Shown here in pieces: positions 4,913-61,293 of a stretch of 64,000 bases of DNA. The position numbers and the translations under genes were made by a program. The DNA lies in the NCBI GenBank assembly GCA_014730275.1, contig WJIL01000132.1:122026-186025 (forward strand). Direction: 5' to 3'. Numbering within the stretch: position 1 is the first letter of the stretch; every line of letters starts with the position of its first letter. This DNA is from Promethearchaeota archaeon (GTDB lineage Archaea > Asgardarchaeota > Thorarchaeia > Thorarchaeales > Thorarchaeaceae). The notes under the pieces are model-generated. The model did no database searches. It was given only the letters and a program-made list of their open reading frames with translations, and was not told the DNA's origin.

Positions 4913-5794
4913 TTGGATTTGGATCACGTCTTTGGGAAGCTGCGATTCGATGAATCGGTCAGTGCATATTCGCTATTTACCAATGATGGTGAGCCATTCC
5001 TGTCATTCTCGATGCCCGAGACCATACTCCCGCAGCTCAAGGGAACTATGAAGGCCCATTCATCATCATTAAGAATGGTGAATGTTCTAACAAGCGCTGG
5101 TACGGTTGTTCTTTCGAGAGTTGACCCAAATTGGGTGCTTGGCGTTCTATTTGTGCCCGAAAATCCCCTCGGTGCATCGCTTCAAAGCACAAGGGATGTA
5201 GTTGAGGATTTACAAGAAACCGATCTTCCGGATCCACCTCAACCTTCTGTAGATTCTACCGAGAAAACCTCGGAGCCGGTGGGTGAAGTCTCGGAATCCG
5301 AGGAACCTCAGGATATTACGGTTCGGCACGGCTGTATTGTTCACAAAGGTGAGCAATATGGTCAAGCTACCATGAGCGATTCTGAACTACGAAAAGCCAT
5401 GACTGACCATTTCGGCAATTTAGCCTTGGATGTTCTTCTCATGGTAGATGAGAAACGGACCATATTCCAGATAGCTGAATTGCTCGACAAGCAAGTTGAC
5501 AGGATTATTCCTTTAGTTGAATGGCTTGTGCCAAGACAGGTCGTCTGGGTACAATGTCCATCAGAACAGGAGACGGGAGCTAGAGAAATTGTAGAATGCC
5601 CTGTTTTCAGCGGCGATTTCGGAAAAGCAAAGCGGGAACATCGAGAGGTTCTTGAGCTTTGTGATGGCAATCATACAGTTCAGGAAATCGCTGAAGAATT
5701 GAACCTGCAGTACTTCCAGGCTTTGCAGGCTATCGTTCCTTATCGTGGCAAGAGCGTGAAGTTCGTCCGTACGAATAGAATACAACAGAAATGA
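4913..5794 (+). CDS. roadblock/LC7 (MglB-like) domain protein with acidic linker and C-terminal winged-helix-like domain (paralog A)
   Basis: The N-terminal ~100 aa follow the roadblock pattern: a beta-strand with DG (SLFTNDGEPFL) and a late hairpin AGTVVLSRVDPNWVLGVLFVPENPLG that resembles MglB ...HALLVLVFDETAPLG. An acidic, P-rich linker follows. The C-terminal domain carries the conserved LELCDGNHTVQEIAEEL. It is a paralog of 7801-8808: both share KLRFDE near the N-terminus and CDGNHT near the C-terminus. Confidence 0.5.
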   Translation: MDLDHVFGKLRFDESVSAYSLFTNDGEPFLSFSMPETILPQLKGTMKAHSSSLRMVNVLTSAGTVVLSRVDPNWVLGVLFVPENPLGASLQSTRDVVEDLQETDLPDPPQPSVDSTEKTSEPVGEVSESEEPQDITVRHGCIVHKGEQYGQATMSDSELRKAMTDHFGNLALDVLLMVDEKRTIFQIAELLDKQVDRIIPLVEWLVPRQVVWVQCPSEQETGAREIVECPVFSGDFGKAKREHREVLELCDGNHTVQEIAEELNLQYFQALQAIVPYRGKSVKFVRTNRIQQK

Positions 5795-6312
5795 ATGAGG
5801 TTGATATTATGGGGTTGAAAGGAAGACTGGCTTGGGCCTTGAAAATTGATAAAGTTGCTAAACCACTGTTCCAATCGGTGTATAGAGAATTGATGAATCA
5901 TCTAATTCAACAATCCGAAAATGTGGATGTAATCAATCACCAATTGAAGGAAATTGGTTTTCGTGTAGGTGAACATTTGCTCATGGACTACGCGGAGAAA
6001 ATACGTGAGCATGCAGGGGAATTTCATGAATTCGCATCGACGCTTAATCTAGCCTACAAGGTTAATTCAGGCCACGATTTCTCCGATATCTGGATTAGCG
6101 ATGACAAGAATACGATTAAATTTACGGACAACAATTGCCCAATCTGTGAAGATGTTGAAATAACTGATATGCCTGGCTTGGAATACTGCAACCTCGTGAG
6201 TGGGGTATTTCAGGCAGTACTTGATCTACGCGGGTTCAAGGGTGAATCATATCAAGAGTCTTGTCAGGCTGTGGGCGATGAAACATGTATTTGGACAATC
6301 AAATCCATTTAA
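5791..6312 (+). CDS. V4R-domain protein (COG1719; TRAPP/Bet3-like fold)
   Basis: C-terminal NNCPICEDV...YCNLVSGVFQAVLDLRGFKGESYQESCQAVGDETCIWTI matches the V4R pattern CxxC ... G.l.G ... E.xC.A.GD..C.F. The start overlaps the upstream stop by 4 nt (ATGA). Confidence 0.7.
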   Translation: MNEVDIMGLKGRLAWALKIDKVAKPLFQSVYRELMNHLIQQSENVDVINHQLKEIGFRVGEHLLMDYAEKIREHAGEFHEFASTLNLAYKVNSGHDFSDIWISDDKNTIKFTDNNCPICEDVEITDMPGLEYCNLVSGVFQAVLDLRGFKGESYQESCQAVGDETCIWTIKSI

Positions 6313-8837: not shown

Positions 8838-9314
8838 ATGGTTAGAGTCAGAAATCCCTTACTGGTAACTTTGTACTCTCGAATCGTTGACAAGGTCTTG
8901 GCCACGACCGACAGTATTGAAGAAGCTAATGATGAACTCCGAGAAGTAGGCCGAAGCATCTCAACCAATTTATATCTAAATACCGAAGTCGCTCAGAATA
9001 CAAAAGAGACTATCCAGACTAGGGAAGACGTGTCAAAGTTAGTAGAGGTAGTTTTCAGAGAGCTTTATGATAGAAGGCCCGATGAGATTGATATGGATAC
9101 CGCCCGCGGAAGCGTACGAATCACGGACGAAGAATGTGTATGGTGTCAGGATGTTCATCTTGAAGGGATGAGGGGATTTGGGTACGGTGAGATTTTCAGC
9201 GGTATTCTGGAGGCAATCTTGGAGCTCAAGGGCGTCGATGCCAAAGTCTTCCAAGAGATGTCTCGAGCAACGGGCTCTGATCGCTGTACATGGAATGTGC
9301 GTCTCGTCTGGTGA
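8838..9314 (+). CDS. V4R-domain protein (COG1719)
   Basis: ECVWCQDVHLEGMRGFGYGEIFSGILEAILELKG...SRATGSDRCTWNV shows the V4R cysteine pattern. Confidence 0.7.
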   Translation: MVRVRNPLLVTLYSRIVDKVLATTDSIEEANDELREVGRSISTNLYLNTEVAQNTKETIQTREDVSKLVEVVFRELYDRRPDEIDMDTARGSVRITDEECVWCQDVHLEGMRGFGYGEIFSGILEAILELKGVDAKVFQEMSRATGSDRCTWNVRLVW

Positions 9315-25914: not shown

Positions 25915-26505
25915 TTGTCCAAGACGGAACCTAATGGGACGATTGAAATGGGGTACTCCTTAGTGTCAAGTTCAGCCAAGGATTTCCACTACGTACGGAA
26001 AGTTGTGATGATTGGAGCTGGAGGTAGCGGAAAAACCGCTTTAGTCAACCGCTTTCTAACGAACCGATTTACCGACCAATATATAGTTACAATCGGAAGC
26101 CAATTTGCGGTCAAAGTTGTACCAGTAAATGACTCAAATGGCAATGAGAGAAGAGTGAAACTACTCATATGGGATCTGGCTGGTCAGAAGCGATTTGATT
26201 TTATCAGGCACAGTTACTATAGGGGAGCAAAAGGAGCGTTGCTCGTATTCGATACTACTCGGCAAAGTACGTTTCGAGTACTTGACAACTGGATTGCAGA
26301 AACCAAGAAAGCTTTGAACACCTCTATTCCTATTATTGTCTTAGCCAACAAAATTGACCTGGAGGATCAACGAGTTGTTGGAACTCATGAAGGCCGTGAG
26401 TATGTTGCTGAAAAAGGACTGGCTGGATATCTTGAGACTAGTGCCCTCTCCGGAGAGAATGTTGAGAGAGCTTTCGAAATGCTTGCTGAAAATGTGATAC
26501 CTTGA
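25915..26505 (+). CDS. Ras-superfamily small GTPase, Rab-like
   Basis: G1 GAGGSGKT, switch TIGSQF, G3 WDLAGQKRF, G4 LANKIDL, G5 ETSAL. Confidence 0.8.
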   Translation: MSKTEPNGTIEMGYSLVSSSAKDFHYVRKVVMIGAGGSGKTALVNRFLTNRFTDQYIVTIGSQFAVKVVPVNDSNGNERRVKLLIWDLAGQKRFDFIRHSYYRGAKGALLVFDTTRQSTFRVLDNWIAETKKALNTSIPIIVLANKIDLEDQRVVGTHEGREYVAEKGLAGYLETSALSGENVERAFEMLAENVIP

Positions 26506-35148: not shown

Positions 35149-36963
35149 TTGATTCATAACACCTATCTCGTAAAGAATCCGTCTGGCGAAATTATCGCCC
35201 ATTCTAGCTATTGGCCAGTAGAAGTGAGAGAGGAACAGGTAGACGAATTCATCGAGACTCGAGAAGAGATTCGCGAACAGTCTGGGAATGAACTAACTCC
35301 AGAACTGCCACTCAGTATTGGTAATGACAAATTTATGGCTACTGAAATAGAATCAGATTTGCTTCTCATATTTGCAACTGACGAATCAGAAGACGAAAGC
35401 AATATTCGCGATCGCTTGAATGAAGCCAAAAAGGTCCTTAGCGATAACTTGGAAAAAGGCATTGATTACATTGTCGAGAACTACCAAGATCTGATTGAGG
35501 ACGCAGTCACGACGCGACTCAAAATAGCTCTGGTGGGTGAAGGAGGTGTTGGAAAGACCACGACGCTCCACCTATTATTGGGTGATTCACCTCCGCTTCA
35601 ATATGTCCCAACAATCGCTCTTAATTTGGAGACGGTTGAGAACATTCGCTTCGGCAACTACAGCCTTGTTTTGTGGGACTTTGCCGGACAGGAGAGATTC
35701 AGGAAGCTATGGAAGTTCTATTTCCACGGTGCCGATGTAATCTTCCTTGTTTGTGATTCTACACTACGGAACGTAATCATCAGCAAGGATATCCTGAAGA
35801 TGATCCGTCGTGATGCTCCTAAGGTTCCTGTATTTGCTATAGCCAATAAACAGGACAAACCCAAGGCGATGAAACCTGAAGTTGTTCAGAAAATACTTGG
35901 TGTGCCTACATATCCAATGGTTGCAATAGACAAAGATCGCCGCGAGGAAATGCTGAGGCTTCTCATGAATGCTGCGGCCCAATACGTGGGTGTATCTGTG
36001 CCTGATTTACCACCCTCAGAAGTTCTTACCTTCGTAGATGCAGAACCCAGTGAAGTAATCAAAGAACAAGAAGAAGAAAAGACTAAGGCCGAAGAAGAAG
36101 AGGTTGAGGTGGTAGAGACGGTTCTTGTTGATGAGGAGGGACGAATCATTGATGAGGCTGAGGGAGATTACGAAGTTATCGAAGAGGTCGTCGAGGTTGT
36201 AGAGGACGAAGAACCGGCAGAAGAACCTGTCCCAGAAGTGTCCGCGGAATCTGAAGCAATTTCTGGAATCGAAGTTTCTGAGATGGGGGATGAAACCGTT
36301 GATGACCAAGAAGCTGTTTCGGTGCAAGATGGGCATTCCAGAACCGAGGAGCCCATTGCTTTCTCCTTGGAAACAACACAGGAAGTGGTTGATTCCGAAG
36401 ATTCGGAAACTGGTCATGTCGACATATCATGGAAATCTACGAGTGAAATAGTTGAAGCTGAAGAAACTGGAGAAACCTCCATTGTAGAAAAAGCCGAGTG
36501 GGACACTAGAGCAGTCGATTATCACCAGAAGACAAAGAAAGAAGCCATCGAGAACGGTCGTGAAATGGCAAAAGAGATTATTTCAGAAGCTCTGGATGCG
36601 GACGATCTTGTCGCCTCCGATTTAGAAAAAGCAAGCGGTGAGGAACTAGATGCGGCTCTCGAGGCCTTTTCCAGCGATGAAACATTGCCCACCGAAGAGG
36701 AAGAAGAAAAGACCACTGCCGAGCTTGAAGAAAACACGAAAGAAGAACTTGAAGAAATACTCGGAGACATTGAATGCGTTGTCAGATCTCCTAAATGTGA
36801 AAAGGAATCTGATAGCTCGAGTGAACCCGATAAAGAAGCCATCCGCGAGATGGAACAAATCTTGGGCGAGATGGATTCAAAGAAGAAATTACAGCATGAT
36901 ATTAATTCTGTAAGAAAACGATCCGATTCAGGCGATGATCATAGATCTGTAGAAGAGTCATAA
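35149..36963 (+). CDS. small GTPase fused to an N-terminal roadblock/longin-like domain and a ~330-aa poly-acidic C-terminal tail
   Basis: GTPase core: KIALVGEGGVGKTT, WDFAGQERF, IANKQD. The preceding ~130 aa have a roadblock-like pattern. The tail is Glu-rich low complexity. Confidence 0.75.
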   Translation: MIHNTYLVKNPSGEIIAHSSYWPVEVREEQVDEFIETREEIREQSGNELTPELPLSIGNDKFMATEIESDLLLIFATDESEDESNIRDRLNEAKKVLSDNLEKGIDYIVENYQDLIEDAVTTRLKIALVGEGGVGKTTTLHLLLGDSPPLQYVPTIALNLETVENIRFGNYSLVLWDFAGQERFRKLWKFYFHGADVIFLVCDSTLRNVIISKDILKMIRRDAPKVPVFAIANKQDKPKAMKPEVVQKILGVPTYPMVAIDKDRREEMLRLLMNAAAQYVGVSVPDLPPSEVLTFVDAEPSEVIKEQEEEKTKAEEEEVEVVETVLVDEEGRIIDEAEGDYEVIEEVVEVVEDEEPAEEPVPEVSAESEAISGIEVSEMGDETVDDQEAVSVQDGHSRTEEPIAFSLETTQEVVDSEDSETGHVDISWKSTSEIVEAEETGETSIVEKAEWDTRAVDYHQKTKKEAIENGREMAKEIISEALDADDLVASDLEKASGEELDAALEAFSSDETLPTEEEEEKTTAELEENTKEELEEILGDIECVVRSPKCEKESDSSSEPDKEAIREMEQILGEMDSKKKLQHDINSVRKRSDSGDDHRSVEES

Positions 36964-40979: not shown

Positions 40980-41678
40980 ATGAAAATTGTCGTCACTGGA
41001 AGCCATTCCGCGGGGAAGAGCGAGATTATTCACAGTCTGACCAATGGTGCTTGCATCAACATTGAGCGTAAAGGTACCACGATAGCCATGGATCATGGAG
41101 TAGCCGAGCTTCCTGAATTAAACGTCTTCCTCTTTGGAACACCTGGTCTGCTACGGTTTCGGACAATGAGGAAGATTCTGAGTTCCGGAGCAGACGGAAT
41201 AATATTTGTGGTGGACAGCGTTGACCCAGAGGCTGATGCTCGAGCGAAGCTTTTCTTCAGAGAGATTGCTTTCTTTCTTCCTGGTGTTCCCTGTGTTGTA
41301 GCTGCGAATAAGCAGGACCTAGAAGAAGCTAGAAGAGTGGATGAGCTTCGAGAAAGCATGAAATTCTTGGCTGGACTTCCTGTTATTCCTTGTTCTGCCA
41401 AGACAGGTAAGAATGTCGAAAACACTCTGAGGACTTTGCTTTATTTGGCTATGATGCAATGGAGTGAGGTTTTCGCAAAATTCGCGGAGTATAGCGGTGC
41501 TGATGACGGACTACAAGGTCTCATGTCTGATTTGAATATTTCTCGTGAGCAAGCAGTTGGTCACCTTCGCAGATTCGAGCTCAGGAAGTTGCTAGAAGTA
41601 GATGTTGGTGACAGGCGGTTCTTTGTGAAGGATGCTGTTATGCCGTTGTTAGAGAACCCTGTACTTGTAATGGCTTAG
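40980..41678 (+). CDS. small GTPase, MglA/Arf-like
   Basis: KIVVTGSHSAGKSEIIHSL (P-loop), FGTPGLLRF, AANKQDL, CSAKTG. C-terminal ~60-aa extension. Confidence 0.75.
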   Translation: MKIVVTGSHSAGKSEIIHSLTNGACINIERKGTTIAMDHGVAELPELNVFLFGTPGLLRFRTMRKILSSGADGIIFVVDSVDPEADARAKLFFREIAFFLPGVPCVVAANKQDLEEARRVDELRESMKFLAGLPVIPCSAKTGKNVENTLRTLLYLAMMQWSEVFAKFAEYSGADDGLQGLMSDLNISREQAVGHLRRFELRKLLEVDVGDRRFFVKDAVMPLLENPVLVMA

Positions 41679-46648: not shown

Positions 46649-47011
46649 TTGTCAAGCCGCGTTGATAGAATCAATAACGCCATAAAGGATTTCGAGACTA
46701 CGCCAGGAATTCAAGGAGCTGCCCTTGTATCACTTGATGGTCTCATGATATCAGCTGCACTTCCCGAGAGTGAACAGGAACGAGTTGCGGCGATAAGTGC
46801 TGCCATGCTTTCCCTAGGTGAAAAAGCCACACGGGAACTAGATCGTGGAAATCTGATGGAGATTTATGTGAAAGGTGACAAAGGTTACACTTTGATGACG
46901 TCAGTGGGCGATAGTGCTCTATTACTTGTTCTAGCTAAGGCTGATGCCCAACTTGGACTCATCTTTGTAGATATGCAACGAATGGCTGAAAGCCTTGCTG
47001 ACGTGCTGTAG
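46649..47011 (+). CDS. roadblock/LC7 (MglB-like) domain protein, stand-alone
   Basis: IQGAALVSLDGLMISAALPESEQERVAAISAAMLSLG...GDSALLLVLAKADAQLGLIFVDM is a canonical roadblock. TTG start. Confidence 0.8.
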   Translation: MSSRVDRINNAIKDFETTPGIQGAALVSLDGLMISAALPESEQERVAAISAAMLSLGEKATRELDRGNLMEIYVKGDKGYTLMTSVGDSALLLVLAKADAQLGLIFVDMQRMAESLADVL

Positions 47012-54535: not shown

Positions 54536-55390
54536 TTGTCTCTGTTTCGGAGGATAGTGGACCGCCTTAAAAGAGCGGTAGGAAAAGAGAGCAAAACAGA
54601 GGACACTGTTGCGCGAAAAGACGAACATGAAGACCTTCCCTCGAAAGAGAAAGCTGCAAGCAGCTCGGAACGCCCCCTCTCAGCTATAGACCTTCCTGTT
54701 TCACCCACAGGAACAGTTTCTGCACAGACGTCGACAATACCTCTAGATACGGAACGAACAGAGAGTCTTGCGAAAGAGGCCAAAATCAAACCTCGTACCC
54801 CTGAAGAGATTGTTCCAGGCAAGCTGTTGAAGAGAGATGAAGAGGGGAGAATCCATATCAAAATCGTATTCTACGGCCCATCCCTTTCTGGTAAAACAAC
54901 TGCGTTGAGATGGCTTTTTGCAAACATCCCATCGTTGAGCCAACGCAAGATGGTCGAAATCAGTGATGAATTGGGTAGAACAACATTCTTTGATTTTCTA
55001 CCCGTAGCTGCACGCGGGAGCAATATTGTATTTGATGTATTCACAGTAGCGGGTCAGCGAAGACATGCTCGAAGCCGAATCAGTGTCCTAAAGGATGCTG
55101 ATGGAATAATTTTCATGGCAGATTCTAGACCAGAGTCTATGAACGAGAATCTTGCTTCCATTGAGGAATTGCGAATTGCACTAGGAACTGACCGGGTGGC
55201 AACGATGCCAATCATTGTCTCCCTCAACAAACGTGATCTTCCCAATGCTCTACCCCCTGATTATATGATACAGATGCTTGATTTGGAGGGCTTTCCGGTC
55301 TTTGAGACCATAGCCACAGAAGGCAAGAATCTCGTGCGTATGTTCCAGCGGGTATTGCGTGATGCACTTGTATTCAAAATCGGTATGTAG
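54536..55390 (+). CDS. MglA-like small GTPase with ~100-aa N-terminal low-complexity extension
   Basis: KIVFYGPSLSGKTTALRWL (cf. MglA KIVYYGPGLSGKTT), TVAGQ, ADGIIFMADS, LNKRDL. Confidence 0.7.
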   Translation: MSLFRRIVDRLKRAVGKESKTEDTVARKDEHEDLPSKEKAASSSERPLSAIDLPVSPTGTVSAQTSTIPLDTERTESLAKEAKIKPRTPEEIVPGKLLKRDEEGRIHIKIVFYGPSLSGKTTALRWLFANIPSLSQRKMVEISDELGRTTFFDFLPVAARGSNIVFDVFTVAGQRRHARSRISVLKDADGIIFMADSRPESMNENLASIEELRIALGTDRVATMPIIVSLNKRDLPNALPPDYMIQMLDLEGFPVFETIATEGKNLVRMFQRVLRDALVFKIGM

Positions 55391-56312: not shown

Positions 56313-56388
56313 AGCCCCGTGGTGTAGCGGTCAAGCATGGCGGGTTCTGGTCCCGCTGACCTAGGTTCGAATCCTGGCGGGGCTACCA
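56313..56388 (+). tRNA. tRNA-Gln (anticodon CUG), CCA encoded
   Basis: Hand-folded. Acceptor AGCCCCG/CGGGGCU has the A1:U72 pair typical of archaeal tRNA-Gln. D-stem GUGU/GCAU, anticodon stem GCGGG/CCCGC with loop UUCUGGU, T-arm CUAGG-UUCGAAU-CCUGG. Discriminator A then CCA. Confidence 0.8.
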
Positions 56389-56717: not shown

Positions 56718-57506
56718 TTGACCCTTATGAAACAAGAAGAACTTGGCTGGGATCAATTCTGGGCTGAGATATTCCGTGTAAAGCATAGAAACTGCATTCA
56801 AGGTATTGAGAAATACGATGAGATGTTAGCTGAGTTCTGCTTTGAAGTACTGGATTTGGATGAAGAAGACCGAGTCTTGGATATAGCCTGTGGTGCTGGA
56901 GATCACGCTATCGAGTTCGCAAAAATGAATTTGGATGTGTCAGCTTTCGACCTTTCTGAGACTCTGATATCTGTAGCTGAGGAGAGAGCGGAGGAGGAAG
57001 GTGTCGAAGTTGATTTCCATGTTGGCGATATGCGTGAAATGGACTTCGAGCTTGAGTTTGATGCTGCAGTTCTATTGAGTCATAGTTTCGGTTTTTTCGA
57101 CCATGCTGAGAATAAACGTGTGCTAAAAGGATCATTCGATGCTCTAGTTGAAGATGGGCGACTACTTCTTGACTTGTTGAATCCCTACAACTTACCAGAT
57201 TTTCAACAAACATGGACAGAACTGGAAGGCGGATTCCTCCTTAGCCGTGCACATGTTCTTGATGCGGCTTCGAGCGTCTTGAGGGGACGTCCGGCAACTT
57301 TTATCGATATTGAAGGGAATCGTCTAGTATCAATGAATCAGGATGCTTTGGCTAACAACGATGTCCGGATATACACGGCACTGGAAATAGAAGGTATGCT
57401 GAAAGACATCGGATTCAAGAAGGTGGAACTTTACGGATCCAATAAACTGCCCAAGATGCCTTATAGCGCAAATTCGGAGCGCATGGTAGTTGTTGCCTGT
57501 AAATAA
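56718..57506 (+). CDS. class-I SAM-dependent methyltransferase
   Basis: Motif I VLDIACGAGDHAIEFA, acidic motif II FDLSE. Confidence 0.8.
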   Translation: MTLMKQEELGWDQFWAEIFRVKHRNCIQGIEKYDEMLAEFCFEVLDLDEEDRVLDIACGAGDHAIEFAKMNLDVSAFDLSETLISVAEERAEEEGVEVDFHVGDMREMDFELEFDAAVLLSHSFGFFDHAENKRVLKGSFDALVEDGRLLLDLLNPYNLPDFQQTWTELEGGFLLSRAHVLDAASSVLRGRPATFIDIEGNRLVSMNQDALANNDVRIYTALEIEGMLKDIGFKKVELYGSNKLPKMPYSANSERMVVVACK

Positions 57507-57543
57507 CAGCTGCCTTCGATAATCTTTTAAGACCAACAACGTC

Positions 57544-59865
57544 GTGACCACTCGTGCTACCGGTGACACCGCCGGCGGCCTCCCAACCGAGTTTTCTCGT
57601 AAGGATAAACTTCGGCAGTTGGGAAAATGCTATCAGAATTTACGGGTGATTATATTGGTCAAAATCAAGGAGCCAGATGCGATTAGAAGGCTCATCAAAT
57701 CAGAGGACTACAAACATAAGCGGATTATTTCGATAAGTGCACACATAGATCACGGAAAAACAACGACGACGGATTATCTCATGCGTCGAGCAGGTCTTAT
57801 GAGCGACGCTGCTGCCGGCGAAGCGTTGATGACCGATAGCGACGAGGAAGAGCAAGAACGTGGTATTACCATCTTTACTTCTGTCGTGCTACTCAACTTC
57901 GAGGTGGAGGGTGAGGAGTATCTTGTTCAGCTATCAGATACCCCAGGCCATCTCTCGTTCACTGGTGAAGTATCACGTGCTCTACGTGCTAGCGATGGTG
58001 TAGTCATTTTGGTTGATGCTCTAGAAGGTGTAATGACACAAACAGAGACGAACATTCGTCTTGCAGTTGGAGGCGAAGGATGTAAACCTGTTTTGTATGT
58101 TAACAAGGTTGACCGATTAATCAACGAGCTGAAACTACCTCCAAAGAAGGTCTATGAACGAATAGACATCATTGTGGCGAAGGTCAATGAACTCATCAAG
58201 AAATATGCGCCTCCAGAGTTTGACTGGCGAGTTGCTTTCGAGGATGGCAGTGTTGCCATTGGAAGTGCCAAGACTGGATGGGCATTTACCATGGAGACTC
58301 TCCAGCGCCAAGGAGTCAAACCCGATATTGTCTTTGAGAAGTATCAGGAAGGAGATGACCGCTGGCTGAGAGAGAACCTTCCGCTTGATGATGCGCTTCT
58401 TGAAATGATGGTGAAACATCTTCCGAATCCAAAGGAAGCTCAGAAATTCAAAATACCGAGAATCTGGAAAGGAGATCCAGAAAGCCCCGAGGGCAAGGCA
58501 CTACTTGAATGCGATCGAGATGGTCCTCTATTGGGTATGATTACGAAAATCTACGTCGATCCTAAGAGCAAGCGACCAACCCTTATTGGACGTGTCTTCT
58601 CGGGCACTCTTACGGCTGGACAGGAAATCAAGCTAATCAACATGAAGAAGCGAGCCAGAGTTAAACGCCTGGGTGTTCAAGAGATTACAGATATCCTGCC
58701 TATGGAAGAGATACCGGCAGGGAATCTTTTCTCGATATTTGGTTTCATCTGTCCGTCAGGTGAGAGCTTCGTAGATGCGGGTTCAGATATGAAGGGCTTC
58801 GAGGCAATCGAATATGTGAGCGAACCTGTTGTGAGCCGAAGTATTAGACCGAAGGATCCTCAGGATATTGCCAAGCTCGGTGATGTTGTGAAAAAATGGA
58901 TTATGGCCGACCCAACCGCGAGGTTCTTCCATGATAAGGAATCTGGTGAGTATCGGCTTGATGGAATCGATCCCCTTCAAATCGAGATTCTCACACGTCG
59001 TATCAATGAACAGGTGCCGATTATCGTCTCAGAACCAATAATTGTGTATCGTGAGAAGATGACAGAGCGTGGAGACGAGTTCTTCACAAAGTCTCCGAAC
59101 GGACACAACCGCCTAGAAATGCACCTTGAGCCTTTGAATGACGAAACTGTGGAAATGATTCGTAAGAAGAAAATAACTGCGGACATGGACGAGAAAGAGC
59201 GTGCCAGAATGCTCCGTGATGAAGCTGATTGGGATCCAAAGGTTGCTAGGAACATTATTGACATCTATGAGAACTGCATGCTTGTTGACGACATGAAAGG
59301 CGTACAACGATTCGATCGAATTGAACCCTATGTGAAAGGTGCTTTCCGCGAATTTGTCGATTCTGGTCCCCTTGCTCATGAACCCGTCATGGGAGCAAAG
59401 GTCGTGCTGACTGATGCTACTGTCCACACAGACCCAGCGCACACGGGCTACAATGAGATAGCTACAATGACACGTGCTGGTCTCAACATGGGCTTCTTGA
59501 CTGGTCGACCTGGTTTGTACGAACCTGTTCTTAATGTTGACATCAAGACACCTCCCGAGACACAGGGCGGTGTTATCAAGGTCCTTACCTCCCATAGAGG
59601 ACAGATTGTCACAATAGAAGGCGAAGAAGACGCGGTTACAGTGAAGGGCACCTTGCCTACTGCTGAGACAATTGGCATTGCTGACGAGTTCCGCAGCGCT
59701 ACCGCTGGTAAAAGCTTCTTTGGTTACGAGTTCAAAGATTTCGAGCCATTGCCAAGTAACATGCAAGAAGAGAAGATTCTGGAGATTCGTGAGCGAAAAG
59801 CCATGCCAAAGGAATTGCCCAACTTGAACGCTTGGAGCAGGTATATCTACAAGCGAACAGGCTAA
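57544..59865 (+). CDS. translation elongation factor 2 (aEF-2) homologue with divergent domain-IV loop
   Basis: G1 AHIDHGKTT, G3 DTPGH, G4 NKVD. The full length of five domains aligns by eye with EF-2. The track ORF starts at the GTG at 57544. A GTG at 57646 or a TTG at 57655 would give a conventional ~740-aa protein. The diphthamide-loop region reads VHTDPAHTGYNE, not the canonical HEDAIHRGxxQ. Confidence 0.85.
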   Translation: MTTRATGDTAGGLPTEFSRKDKLRQLGKCYQNLRVIILVKIKEPDAIRRLIKSEDYKHKRIISISAHIDHGKTTTTDYLMRRAGLMSDAAAGEALMTDSDEEEQERGITIFTSVVLLNFEVEGEEYLVQLSDTPGHLSFTGEVSRALRASDGVVILVDALEGVMTQTETNIRLAVGGEGCKPVLYVNKVDRLINELKLPPKKVYERIDIIVAKVNELIKKYAPPEFDWRVAFEDGSVAIGSAKTGWAFTMETLQRQGVKPDIVFEKYQEGDDRWLRENLPLDDALLEMMVKHLPNPKEAQKFKIPRIWKGDPESPEGKALLECDRDGPLLGMITKIYVDPKSKRPTLIGRVFSGTLTAGQEIKLINMKKRARVKRLGVQEITDILPMEEIPAGNLFSIFGFICPSGESFVDAGSDMKGFEAIEYVSEPVVSRSIRPKDPQDIAKLGDVVKKWIMADPTARFFHDKESGEYRLDGIDPLQIEILTRRINEQVPIIVSEPIIVYREKMTERGDEFFTKSPNGHNRLEMHLEPLNDETVEMIRKKKITADMDEKERARMLRDEADWDPKVARNIIDIYENCMLVDDMKGVQRFDRIEPYVKGAFREFVDSGPLAHEPVMGAKVVLTDATVHTDPAHTGYNEIATMTRAGLNMGFLTGRPGLYEPVLNVDIKTPPETQGGVIKVLTSHRGQIVTIEGEEDAVTVKGTLPTAETIGIADEFRSATAGKSFFGYEFKDFEPLPSNMQEEKILEIRERKAMPKELPNLNAWSRYIYKRTG

Positions 59866-59958: not shown

Positions 59959-61293
59959 TTGGTGCCAAGATTGCTTATGGGTCTAGATACGCTTTCTGTG
60001 CTTGAGACACTTGTTGAGACCAATACCGTTTCGGACAGAGACAAAGGAAAAAGGGCTTCATCAGAGTGTCCAAAATACATTACGAAGACCATAGAGGATT
60101 TCGGATTTACAACTGATATTCTGGAGTCAGAAGGATATTGGAGTGCATTCGGGAGAAAGGGAGATGGCGACAAGAAGATTCTGTTTCTTGCTCATTTTGA
60201 TACTGTTCCCCCCGGGAAGGGTTGGAAGACCGATCCTTTCGAGCTTGTAGTCGAGGGTAACCGCGCCTACGGCCGGGGAACTTGCGACGACAAGGGAAAC
60301 ATCGTTTCCATGCTCCTCCTAGCCGAAAAGCTGCAAACAACTAATCCGTCGATGACTGTCATGCTGGCAGCTACTGGTGATGAAGAAATAGGTGGGGCTC
60401 ATGGCGCTGGGAATCTTAGAAACTATCTTGATGAAAATGGTCTTATGCCCGATTATGTTGTAGTGGCAGATGGAATCGGTCAAGTGATAATCCATCGAAG
60501 ACGAAACGCTTTGCCGACCCACGTAAAAGTAAAGAAACACCTCTCTCAGATGAAGGGAGAAATCGAGACCAAACAATTCCAGACTGATCTTTTTGGCAGT
60601 GATACAAGACATTCAGCCTACCAACGACCTGGCGTAGATCGGCATGCCCTCTTGGCTGCCTCGAAATACCTTGATTTGCATCCATTTGCTGGAGTAACCA
60701 AGGTTGAAGGGGCTTTCGTAAAATCAAATGTGATTCCCGACTGGATTGAGCTTGAGATAGTGCATCCAGATGAATCTGGTGCGACGGTTGACTATGATCA
60801 GGGCCTTACTGACTTGTTACGAGCAGCTCTTCCAATGGCTCAAGCTGCATTTCCAACCGAGCATTCCGATATGGGGAAGGTTGTCTCTCCCAACTTACTC
60901 GAGCTAAAGGACGGTGTATGGGATCTCTATCTAGATGTTCGAGCCATGACAAATGATTCGGAAAGTGCAAAAAAAGCGTTCCAAGAATCACTGCGAGGAA
61001 AAGCCGAAGTTACATCTCTTACGGTTGGTGCAGGGCAAGGTTACGTTGATTCCGATCCCAATTCACAGCTAATCAAAGCGGCACGAAAAGCTCTTGATCG
61101 TATAGGAATCAAAACCCGATTGATTGAAGGTGGTGGCGCCTCTGATTCGCGTTATTTCGCGGGTGAGAATACCCAAGTCTTTGATTTTGGCCCAATTGGA
61201 GACAATCTACACGGAGCTAACGAATGGGTACTTGTGCCATCTATCGAGGAGAATGCCGAGTTCTTCTACGAACTCATCAACATTCTCTCATAG
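59959..61293 (+). CDS. M20-family metallopeptidase (ArgE/DapE-like)
   Basis: LAHFDTVPPGKGWKTDPF...GRGTCDDKGN, and the C-terminal dimerisation domain. Confidence 0.8.
   Translation: MVPRLLMGLDTLSVLETLVETNTVSDRDKGKRASSECPKYITKTIEDFGFTTDILESEGYWSAFGRKGDGDKKILFLAHFDTVPPGKGWKTDPFELVVEGNRAYGRGTCDDKGNIVSMLLLAEKLQTTNPSMTVMLAATGDEEIGGAHGAGNLRNYLDENGLMPDYVVVADGIGQVIIHRRRNALPTHVKVKKHLSQMKGEIETKQFQTDLFGSDTRHSAYQRPGVDRHALLAASKYLDLHPFAGVTKVEGAFVKSNVIPDWIELEIVHPDESGATVDYDQGLTDLLRAALPMAQAAFPTEHSDMGKVVSPNLLELKDGVWDLYLDVRAMTNDSESAKKAFQESLRGKAEVTSLTVGAGQGYVDSDPNSQLIKAARKALDRIGIKTRLIEGGGASDSRYFAGENTQVFDFGPIGDNLHGANEWVLVPSIEENAEFFYELINILS

Follow-up and report, generated by a model that had tools for sequence, protein, structure and literature searches.

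The 64,000-nucleotide (nt) stretch analysed here, referred to below as the window, is taken from contig WJIL01000132.1 (positions 122,026 to 186,025 of the forward strand) of assembly GCA_014730275.1, which belongs to a member of the Thorarchaeota among the Asgard archaea. It encodes a homologue of archaeal elongation factor 2 (aEF-2), the GTPase that moves tRNA as well as mRNA through the ribosome, to which an earlier note, made without database searches, had drawn attention for a non-canonical diphthamide loop and an ambiguous start. The presence of the mechanically called open reading frame (ORF) at 57544..59865 (+ strand), GTG-initiated and 773 residues long, was verified, and the features that lie in and immediately before it are as follows.

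57524..57532, + strand: TATA-like box CTTTTAAGA, a predicted promoter element 131 nt before the start codon
57544..57654, + strand: spurious N-terminal extension of the mechanical ORF, assigned to the 5' untranslated leader from in-frame stops in relatives
57554..57634, + strand: conserved leader motif with predicted helices P1, P2 and P3 (covariance model R1, 60.7 bits, E = 2e-16)
57644..57650, + strand: Shine-Dalgarno-like GGGTGAT, 4 nt before TTG 57655 and containing the alternative GTG 57646
57655..59865, + strand: re-called aEF-2 coding sequence, 736 residues plus stop from a TTG start, based on the start-column comparison, homologue N-termini and Pfam domains
57739..57765, + strand: G1 (P-loop) AHIDHGKTT
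57859-57870, + strand: G2 RGIT
57937-57951, + strand: G3 DTPGH
58102-58113, + strand: G4 NKVD
58261-58269, + strand: G5 GSA
59092..59109, + strand: second domain-IV loop SPNGHN, aligned to the SPNKHN/SPNRHN of solved EF-2
59317..59319, + strand: Arg555, corresponding to E660 of the Drosophila numbering and lying 41 residues ahead of the diphthamide-site His
59422..59457, + strand: diphthamide loop V-H-T-D-P-A-H-T-G-Y-N-E, from the HMMER alignment and homologue conservation, with coordinates checked
59440-59442, + strand: codon of His596, the diphthamide site; the next residue, Thr597, replaces R702

The protein has the complete architecture of the family. All five EF-2/EF-G domains were found with Pfam (GTP_EFTU, 146.8 bits; D2, 24.9; EFG_III, 45.6; EFG_IV, 59.1; EFG_C, 76.7) and the GTPase motifs G1 to G5 are intact, in agreement with the earlier note, which had credited the protein with every EF-2 GTPase motif and the EF-2 domain organisation. 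The top NCBIfam family is that of aEF-2 (TIGR00490), whose profile of 720 positions is matched from 7 to 718 with 654.7 bits. Among solved structures, HMMER gave two archaeal EF-2 chains as the best relatives, 8hl1 with 578 bits and 5h7j with 568 bits, each aligning end to end. The 120 proteins nearest to it in the database are Thorarchaeota EF-2. In a scan restricted to one genome per species, the closest was the Thorarchaeota metagenome-assembled genome (MAG) BLK6-1.bin.124, at 95% identity, followed by some twenty Thorarchaeota MAGs at 79-85%, OWC2 and SMTZ1-45 among them at 80-82%, and, more distantly, by Baldrarchaeum (62%) and a Promethearchaeota (Loki-type) MAG (56%).

It is at the tip of domain IV that the protein departs from canonical EF-2, which here reads H-E-D-x-x-H-R-G-P-A-Q. 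The loop aligns without gaps in HMMER to VHEDPAHRGPAQ of PDB 8hl1 and VHEDNVHRGPAQ of 5h7j, the query segment D-A-T-V-H-T-D-P-A-H-T-G-Y-N-E-I-A standing against D-A-V-V-H-E-D-P-A-H-R-G-P-A-Q-L-Y in 8hl1 and D-A-Q-V-H-E-D-N-V-H-R-G-P-A-Q-I-Y in 5h7j, so that the altered loop is not a by-eye misalignment, as the earlier note had allowed it might be. The HxDxxH frame, the diphthamide-site His and the Gly that follows the R702 position are all kept, whilst Arg has become Thr and P-A-Q has become Y-N-E; H-T-D-P-A-H-T-G-Y-N-E thus lacks the canonical form HxDxxHRG followed by (P/G)xQ. The change described by the earlier note is therefore real and was correctly aligned, although its extent had been overstated, since only the R, P/G, A/G and Q positions are replaced and the Gly of H-T-G is retained. 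Two further substitutions accompany it. The second loop, SPNGHN, differs from canonical SPN[K/R]HN in that the tRNA-contacting Lys (K584) has become Gly, and Arg555 aligns with a Glu in the solved archaeal EF-2s and in canonical representatives of both archaeal and eukaryotic origin. The pattern D-A-T-[VI]-H-x-D-P-A-H-T-G-Y-[NST]-E recurs in 116 of the 120 nearest homologues (77-95% identity), a fixation that speaks against a chance change or drift in a single sequence, and KSPNGHN is found in 120/120. H-T together with the same Arg also occurs in Baldrarchaeum and in the Loki-type relative.

These residues match a pattern that has already been described. According to the sections of Narrowe et al. 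2018 (PMC6143161) on which this comparison draws, the diphthamide synthesis genes dph1/2, dph5 and dph6 are missing from nearly all Asgard archaea, most of the dph-lacking Asgard genomes have two EF-2 family genes, and the aEF-2 of dph-lacking, paralog-bearing genomes keeps H701, has R702 universally changed to Thr, has lost K584 and, in 21/22 cases, has E660 changed to Arg or Lys. The same sections describe a paralog, aEF-2p, that has lost H701 and both domain-IV loop motifs. The earlier note's remark that some archaeal lineages, notably Asgard, are reported to carry EF-2 paralogs and to have lost diphthamide synthesis agrees with this account. All four residue marks of the diphthamide-independent aEF-2 are present in the window protein, namely His596, Thr597, Arg555 and the Gly of SPNGHN.

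The gene is thus very probably that of the one functional ribosomal translocase in this thorarchaeote, its bona fide aEF-2, whose tip was remodelled in a lineage that has given up diphthamide synthesis. The features, their conservation, the orthology with Thorarchaeota aEF-2 and, by comparison, the start are established at the level of sequence. The mechanism would be that of EF-2 in general: domain I would bind and hydrolyse GTP and so drive domain IV into the decoding centre, and its entry would move tRNA and mRNA by one codon. At the remodelled tip the target His is kept, presumably unmodified, with Thr in place of the adjacent Arg; the Glu that formerly partnered that Arg in a salt bridge is now itself Arg, a correlated swap, with Gly replacing the tRNA-contacting Lys of the neighbouring loop and Y-N-E replacing P-A-Q. 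Translation would begin at TTG 57655 behind GGGTGAT as ribosome-binding site, and the preceding 111 nt would form a 5' leader that yields no protein.

The position of the start was approached by comparison. The earlier note had placed the true start well downstream of 57544, at GTG 57646 or TTG 57655, and both parts of this proposal were borne out: the TIGR00490 alignment begins only at residue 45 of the 773-residue ORF and homologue N-termini agree, about 100 of the 120 homologues beginning with MVK[IV]K, whose counterpart here starts at TTG 57655. Across 27 related loci that hold the 5' end of the gene (the window itself, with TTG, being additional), the column of TTG 57655 reads ATG in 23; of the other four, one has GTG and three, among them the closest relative, have TTG. 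This comparison narrows the choice to TTG 57655. Most relatives have in-frame stops 15-75 nt before the start; in the closest one, which is 95% identical, the distance is 27 nt. GGAG/GGTG-type motifs occur at the same distance before the start in related loci, whilst GTG 57646 sits inside GGGTGAT and would be left without a separate ribosome-binding site; P0001, a database entry, does start at the equivalent GTG. Sequence comparison thus makes TTG 57655, 111 nt downstream of the ORF start and giving a protein of 736 residues, the probable translation start; that the ORF reaches back to 57544 is an artefact of the open frame. A real N-terminal extension, raised by the recurrence of E-F-S-R in P0031, was rejected, as conservation there is at the nucleotide level and most relatives have in-frame stops; the apparent amino-acid conservation arises because a conserved nucleotide motif underlies it.

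Gene order around aEF-2 runs from an S-adenosylmethionine (SAM)-dependent methyltransferase through aEF-2 and an M20 peptidase to isoleucyl-tRNA synthetase on the opposite strand. The two same-strand neighbours are as follows.

56718-57506, + strand: class-I SAM methyltransferase, upstream of aEF-2
59959-61293, + strand: M20 peptidase, downstream of aEF-2

The gene order of the window matches that of the closed 3.16-Mb Thorarchaeota genome CP070761.1 and of JGI contigs, and aEF-2 is syntenic with the OWC2 and SMTZ1-45 genes. Almost every Thorarchaeota locus with enough flanking sequence has both neighbours beside aEF-2 and in its orientation, whereas the Baldrarchaeum and Loki-type loci have neither. 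That either is functionally tied to EF-2, for example through methylation, is pure speculation.

Several points weigh against the interpretation of the gene as the translocase of a diphthamide-less lineage. The TIGR00490 score of 654.7 bits falls short of the curated equivalog cut-off of 738.45 bits, an annotation threshold rather than a biological property, although the shortfall does place the protein beyond the range of canonical sequences. The loss of dph genes and the presence of a paralog elsewhere in the genome are drawn from the literature, the sequence inspected being 64 kb, and it is likewise from the literature that His596 is presumably unmodified and the protein active in translocation. 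Profile, cluster-label and contig searches recovered no Thorarchaeota aEF-2p, and GTG 57646 is a possible start in this species and its closest relative. The low score, together with a loop that departs from the canonical motif and the two EF-2 family genes reported for Asgard genomes (PMC6143161, in the sections cited), would also suit a divergent aEF-2p, a ribosome-associated, non-translocating GTPase, with the true EF-2 encoded elsewhere. This is nevertheless extremely improbable. Published paralogs, as those sections describe them, lack H701 and both loops, whereas the window protein retains the His, the HxDxxH frame with the following Gly, and SPNxHN, which places it outside the paralog group. 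A search of 1.84 billion cluster representatives, with key positions read from a joint alignment, returned as nearest an H-T-S type (58% identical) and an H-T-G type whose residue at position 660 is Arg; canonical H-R-G-P-A-Q representatives, with Glu at that position, were 38-41% identical to the query, compared with 33-36% for His-less representatives with intact G motifs. The latter, labelled by source as Odin-, Hel-, Loki-, Heimdall- and Korarchaeota, are the paralogs. In a crude neighbour-joining tree (688 columns, no support values) the query groups with Thorarchaeota aEF-2, then with P0121 (H-T-S) and P0287 (H-T-G), and this Asgard aEF-2 group adjoins canonical EF-2, apart from the paralog clades. 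EFG_IV, which scores 59 bits here, is absent or faint in six of the eight paralog loci looked up. No second EF-2-like ORF was found in the 64-kb window by phmmer, no second copy in the 27 related loci by tblastn, and no other EF-2 type among the Thorarchaeota-labelled homologues in the 120 nearest proteins. Of the two explanations that the earlier note had offered, a diphthamide-independent EF-2 is thus upheld by the residue marks, whilst a paralog is contradicted by the retained His and loops and by the tree.

The remaining alternatives concern the state of His596. That the protein is a normal diphthamide-bearing EF-2, modified despite its changed neighbours by dph genes elsewhere in the genome, would accord with the strict conservation of the target His and its HxDxxH frame and with the 64 kb inspected, but is very unlikely. 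Whole-assembly searches were among those in which dph1/2, dph5 and dph6 were not found in Thorarchaeota, and for the Thorarchaeota OWC bins a binning artefact was excluded by inspecting every dph hit in the whole metagenome assembly (PMC6143161, sections cited); among Asgard archaea only Hodarchaeales have dph genes, there combined with a single canonical EF-2 (Eme et al. 2023, PMC10307638); and no Dph-type Pfam domain occurs among the ORFs of the window, in a genome of about 3 Mb. The combined R702T and E660R swap is, moreover, confined to dph-lacking lineages in the cited sections of PMC6143161. Equally hard to credit is a different, novel modification of His596 that replaces diphthamide functionally, perhaps installed by the upstream SAM methyltransferase. 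Conservation of the His without dph genes speaks for it, as does the presence of that methyltransferase in Thorarchaeota loci and not in those of Baldrarchaeum or the Loki-type relative, but synteny across the class extends over the entire 20-kb neighbourhood, so that adjacency carries little weight. Furthermore, the spacing between the two genes varies from 150 to 3800 nt, with intervening genes in some genomes, and aEF-2 is preceded by a separate promoter-like box and leader.

The search for a Thorarchaeota paralog yielded several candidates and a number of observations on paralogs of other lineages. A profile of 28 His-less representatives matched canonical Bathyarchaeota EF-2 and no Thorarchaeota paralog, and the names of the clusters pointed to Odin, Hel, Loki, Heimdall, Korarchaeota and Bathyarchaeota, with none from Thorarchaeota. 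P0141 was rejected as a Thorarchaeota paralog when a search showed it to be a Bathyarchaeia paralog, and the contigs of P0154, P0180, P0232, P0414, P0198 and P0146 were rejected on their non-Thorarchaeota tetranucleotide composition (correlation r of 0.38-0.62). L120, the contig of P0275, came closest with r = 0.76, compared with 0.79-0.91 for known Thorarchaeota loci and 0.24-0.53 for the others; the value for L120 is suggestive, and this locus may hold a Thorarchaeota paralog or a transferred block. L120 and L030 (the contig of P0141), both from JGI, encode Bathyarchaeia-type paralogs in the common order purP, paralog, OGG glycosylase. Two ENA metagenome contigs of low GC content that are not from Thorarchaeota, L117 (4188-9611) and L118 (6483-10598), encode a canonical EF-2 (HRGPAQ, SPNKHN) near a His-less paralog. 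The pair lies inside an L7Ae-S28e-L24e-EF-2-paralog operon, its members adjacent in L118 and separated by one opposite-strand gene in L117, and EF-1alpha and S10 come immediately next in L117 but some 7 kb further downstream in L118. In these archaea, unlike in the Asgard pattern, a paralog stands alongside an unaltered diphthamide loop.

The region upstream of the start is itself conserved. CTTTTAA (window 57524-57530), part of the TATA-like box, is invariant in 26/26 Thorarchaeota loci, 119-152 nt before the start, and on this sequence evidence the box may act as a promoter. A block of about 75 nt that begins some 23-30 nt downstream of CTTTTAA is predicted to form helices P1 (CACCGG...CCGGUG), P2 (CCCCGAC...GUUGGGG) and, enclosed by P2, P3 (GAG-UUCU-CUC). 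The covariance model finds exactly one copy per Thorarchaeota locus, on the mRNA strand and always upstream of aEF-2, and none in the Baldrarchaeum or Loki-type loci or elsewhere in 563 kb. When metagenomes were scanned with the core 19-mer, 82 loci matched, 17 of which the model confirmed, all 17 located 44-52 nt upstream of a Thorarchaeota-type aEF-2 start; the other 65 matches are in line with the number expected by chance. In total, 43/43 leader instances lie upstream of aEF-2. Over these 43, standard pairs fill 96.5% of pair cells, compared with 37-52% when partners are slid, compensatory changes occur in four pairs, three of them in P1, and the leader has G-U pairs that would be C-A on the opposite strand. 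Other observations weigh against a structured leader: the alignment used for pair counting was fitted to the covariance model, high sequence conservation limits covariation, and single-sequence folding is unremarkable (z = -1.2 and -0.4). On the raw MAFFT alignment RNAalifold gave a weak consensus of -6.2 kcal/mol. No Rfam family matches the leader, and no report of an EF-2 leader of this kind was found in the literature searched. A hairpin upstream of P1 (CGCG-AGGT-CGCG) was set aside as it is not conserved and probably precedes the transcription start, which is predicted near 57553. An upstream ORF was rejected because conservation does not extend to its ATG and the indels do not come in multiples of three.

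The leader is put forward, on sequence comparison, as a candidate lineage-specific element of the 5' untranslated region (UTR), and it is the only item of this analysis that looks new. The fuller proposal, that the element of about 80 nt at 57554-57634 is a Thorarchaeota-specific structured 5'-UTR RNA controlling aEF-2 synthesis, is tentative and on balance doubtful. Such an RNA might operate through feedback, by being bound by EF-2 or by a ribosomal component, or might keep aEF-2 in balance with its paralog. If the proposal holds, the leader would represent a new archaeal class of cis-regulatory RNA on a diphthamide-less translocase and, as a real RNA element, would be among the very few cis-regulatory RNAs proposed for Asgard archaea.

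The window encodes further genes of interest, listed here.

5791-6312 and 8838-9314, + strand: two TRAPP-domain proteins
25915-26505, 35149-36963, 40980-41678 and 54536-55390, + strand: four Ras/Arf/Roc-family small GTPases
46649-47011, + strand: Roadblock/LC7 protein, adjoining a 1286-residue protein with a weak Peptidase_C25 match
56313-56388, + strand: tRNA-Gln(CTG), the sole RNA gene detected in the window with ARAGORN and Rfam

One of the four GTPases has 604 residues and carries extra domains, and ribosomal protein S26e is also encoded. This dense set of genes of the eukaryote-signature type is typical of Asgard genomes.

Since the 2018 description of the phenomenon covers this very lineage (PMC6143161, sections cited), the principal result is already known, and it matters little in itself, adding one more thorarchaeote with the remodelled EF-2 tip that had been tied to diphthamide loss. 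Its use lies partly in annotation. Many Thorarchaeota orthologues among the 120 nearest proteins bear only the NCBI label 'GTP-binding protein', probably because, like the window protein, they score below the TIGR00490 cut-off, and Asgard EF-2 is systematically under-annotated; such genes should be called EF-2, with the start at the MVKIK position, a TTG in this case. In addition, the strict conservation of H-T-G-Y-[NST]-E at the tip, together with the E660R swap, could offer an experimental handle on how the fidelity of translocation is maintained without diphthamide.

Amongst known systems, the leader most resembles the ribosomal-protein leader candidates of Eckert and Weinberg 2020 (PMC7247131), sharing with them a conserved, partly covarying 5'-UTR structure, a translation gene and restriction to one lineage, but differing in its lack of an Rfam match. 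Compared with canonical archaeal EF-2 (PDB 8hl1-8hl4 and 5h7j; TIGR00490), the protein is alike in its five domains, end-to-end alignment, G1 to G5, HxDxxH and SPNxHN, and differs in HRGPAQ to HTGYNE, SPN[K/R]HN to SPNGHN, Glu to Arg at position -41 and the sub-cut-off score. With the aEF-2p found in Asgard archaea, in Korarchaeota and in Bathyarchaeota, as characterised in part from PMC6143161, it has in common the superfamily, a similar length, intact G motifs and the kinds of genome in which they occur, whereas aEF-2p has neither the diphthamide-site His nor the loop motifs, clusters separately and in several cases has no detectable EFG_IV. The closest counterparts are the aEF-2 of dph-lacking Asgard archaea and Korarchaeota, including OWC2 and SMTZ1-45, which the cited sections of PMC6143161 show to be alike in His701, R702T, E660R/K, loss of K584 and the GTPase motifs. 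From the OWC2/SMTZ1-45 type the window gene differs in nothing substantial, with 5-20% divergence and TTG rather than ATG as start; those sections contain no discussion of the Y-[NST]-E after H-T-G. They also describe the parabasalid eEF2, which differs in carrying G703N (R702T and Y-N-E here), in having no paralog and in an independent loss, and which nevertheless resembles the window protein as an EF-2 that works without dph genes and has a changed residue beside its conserved His.

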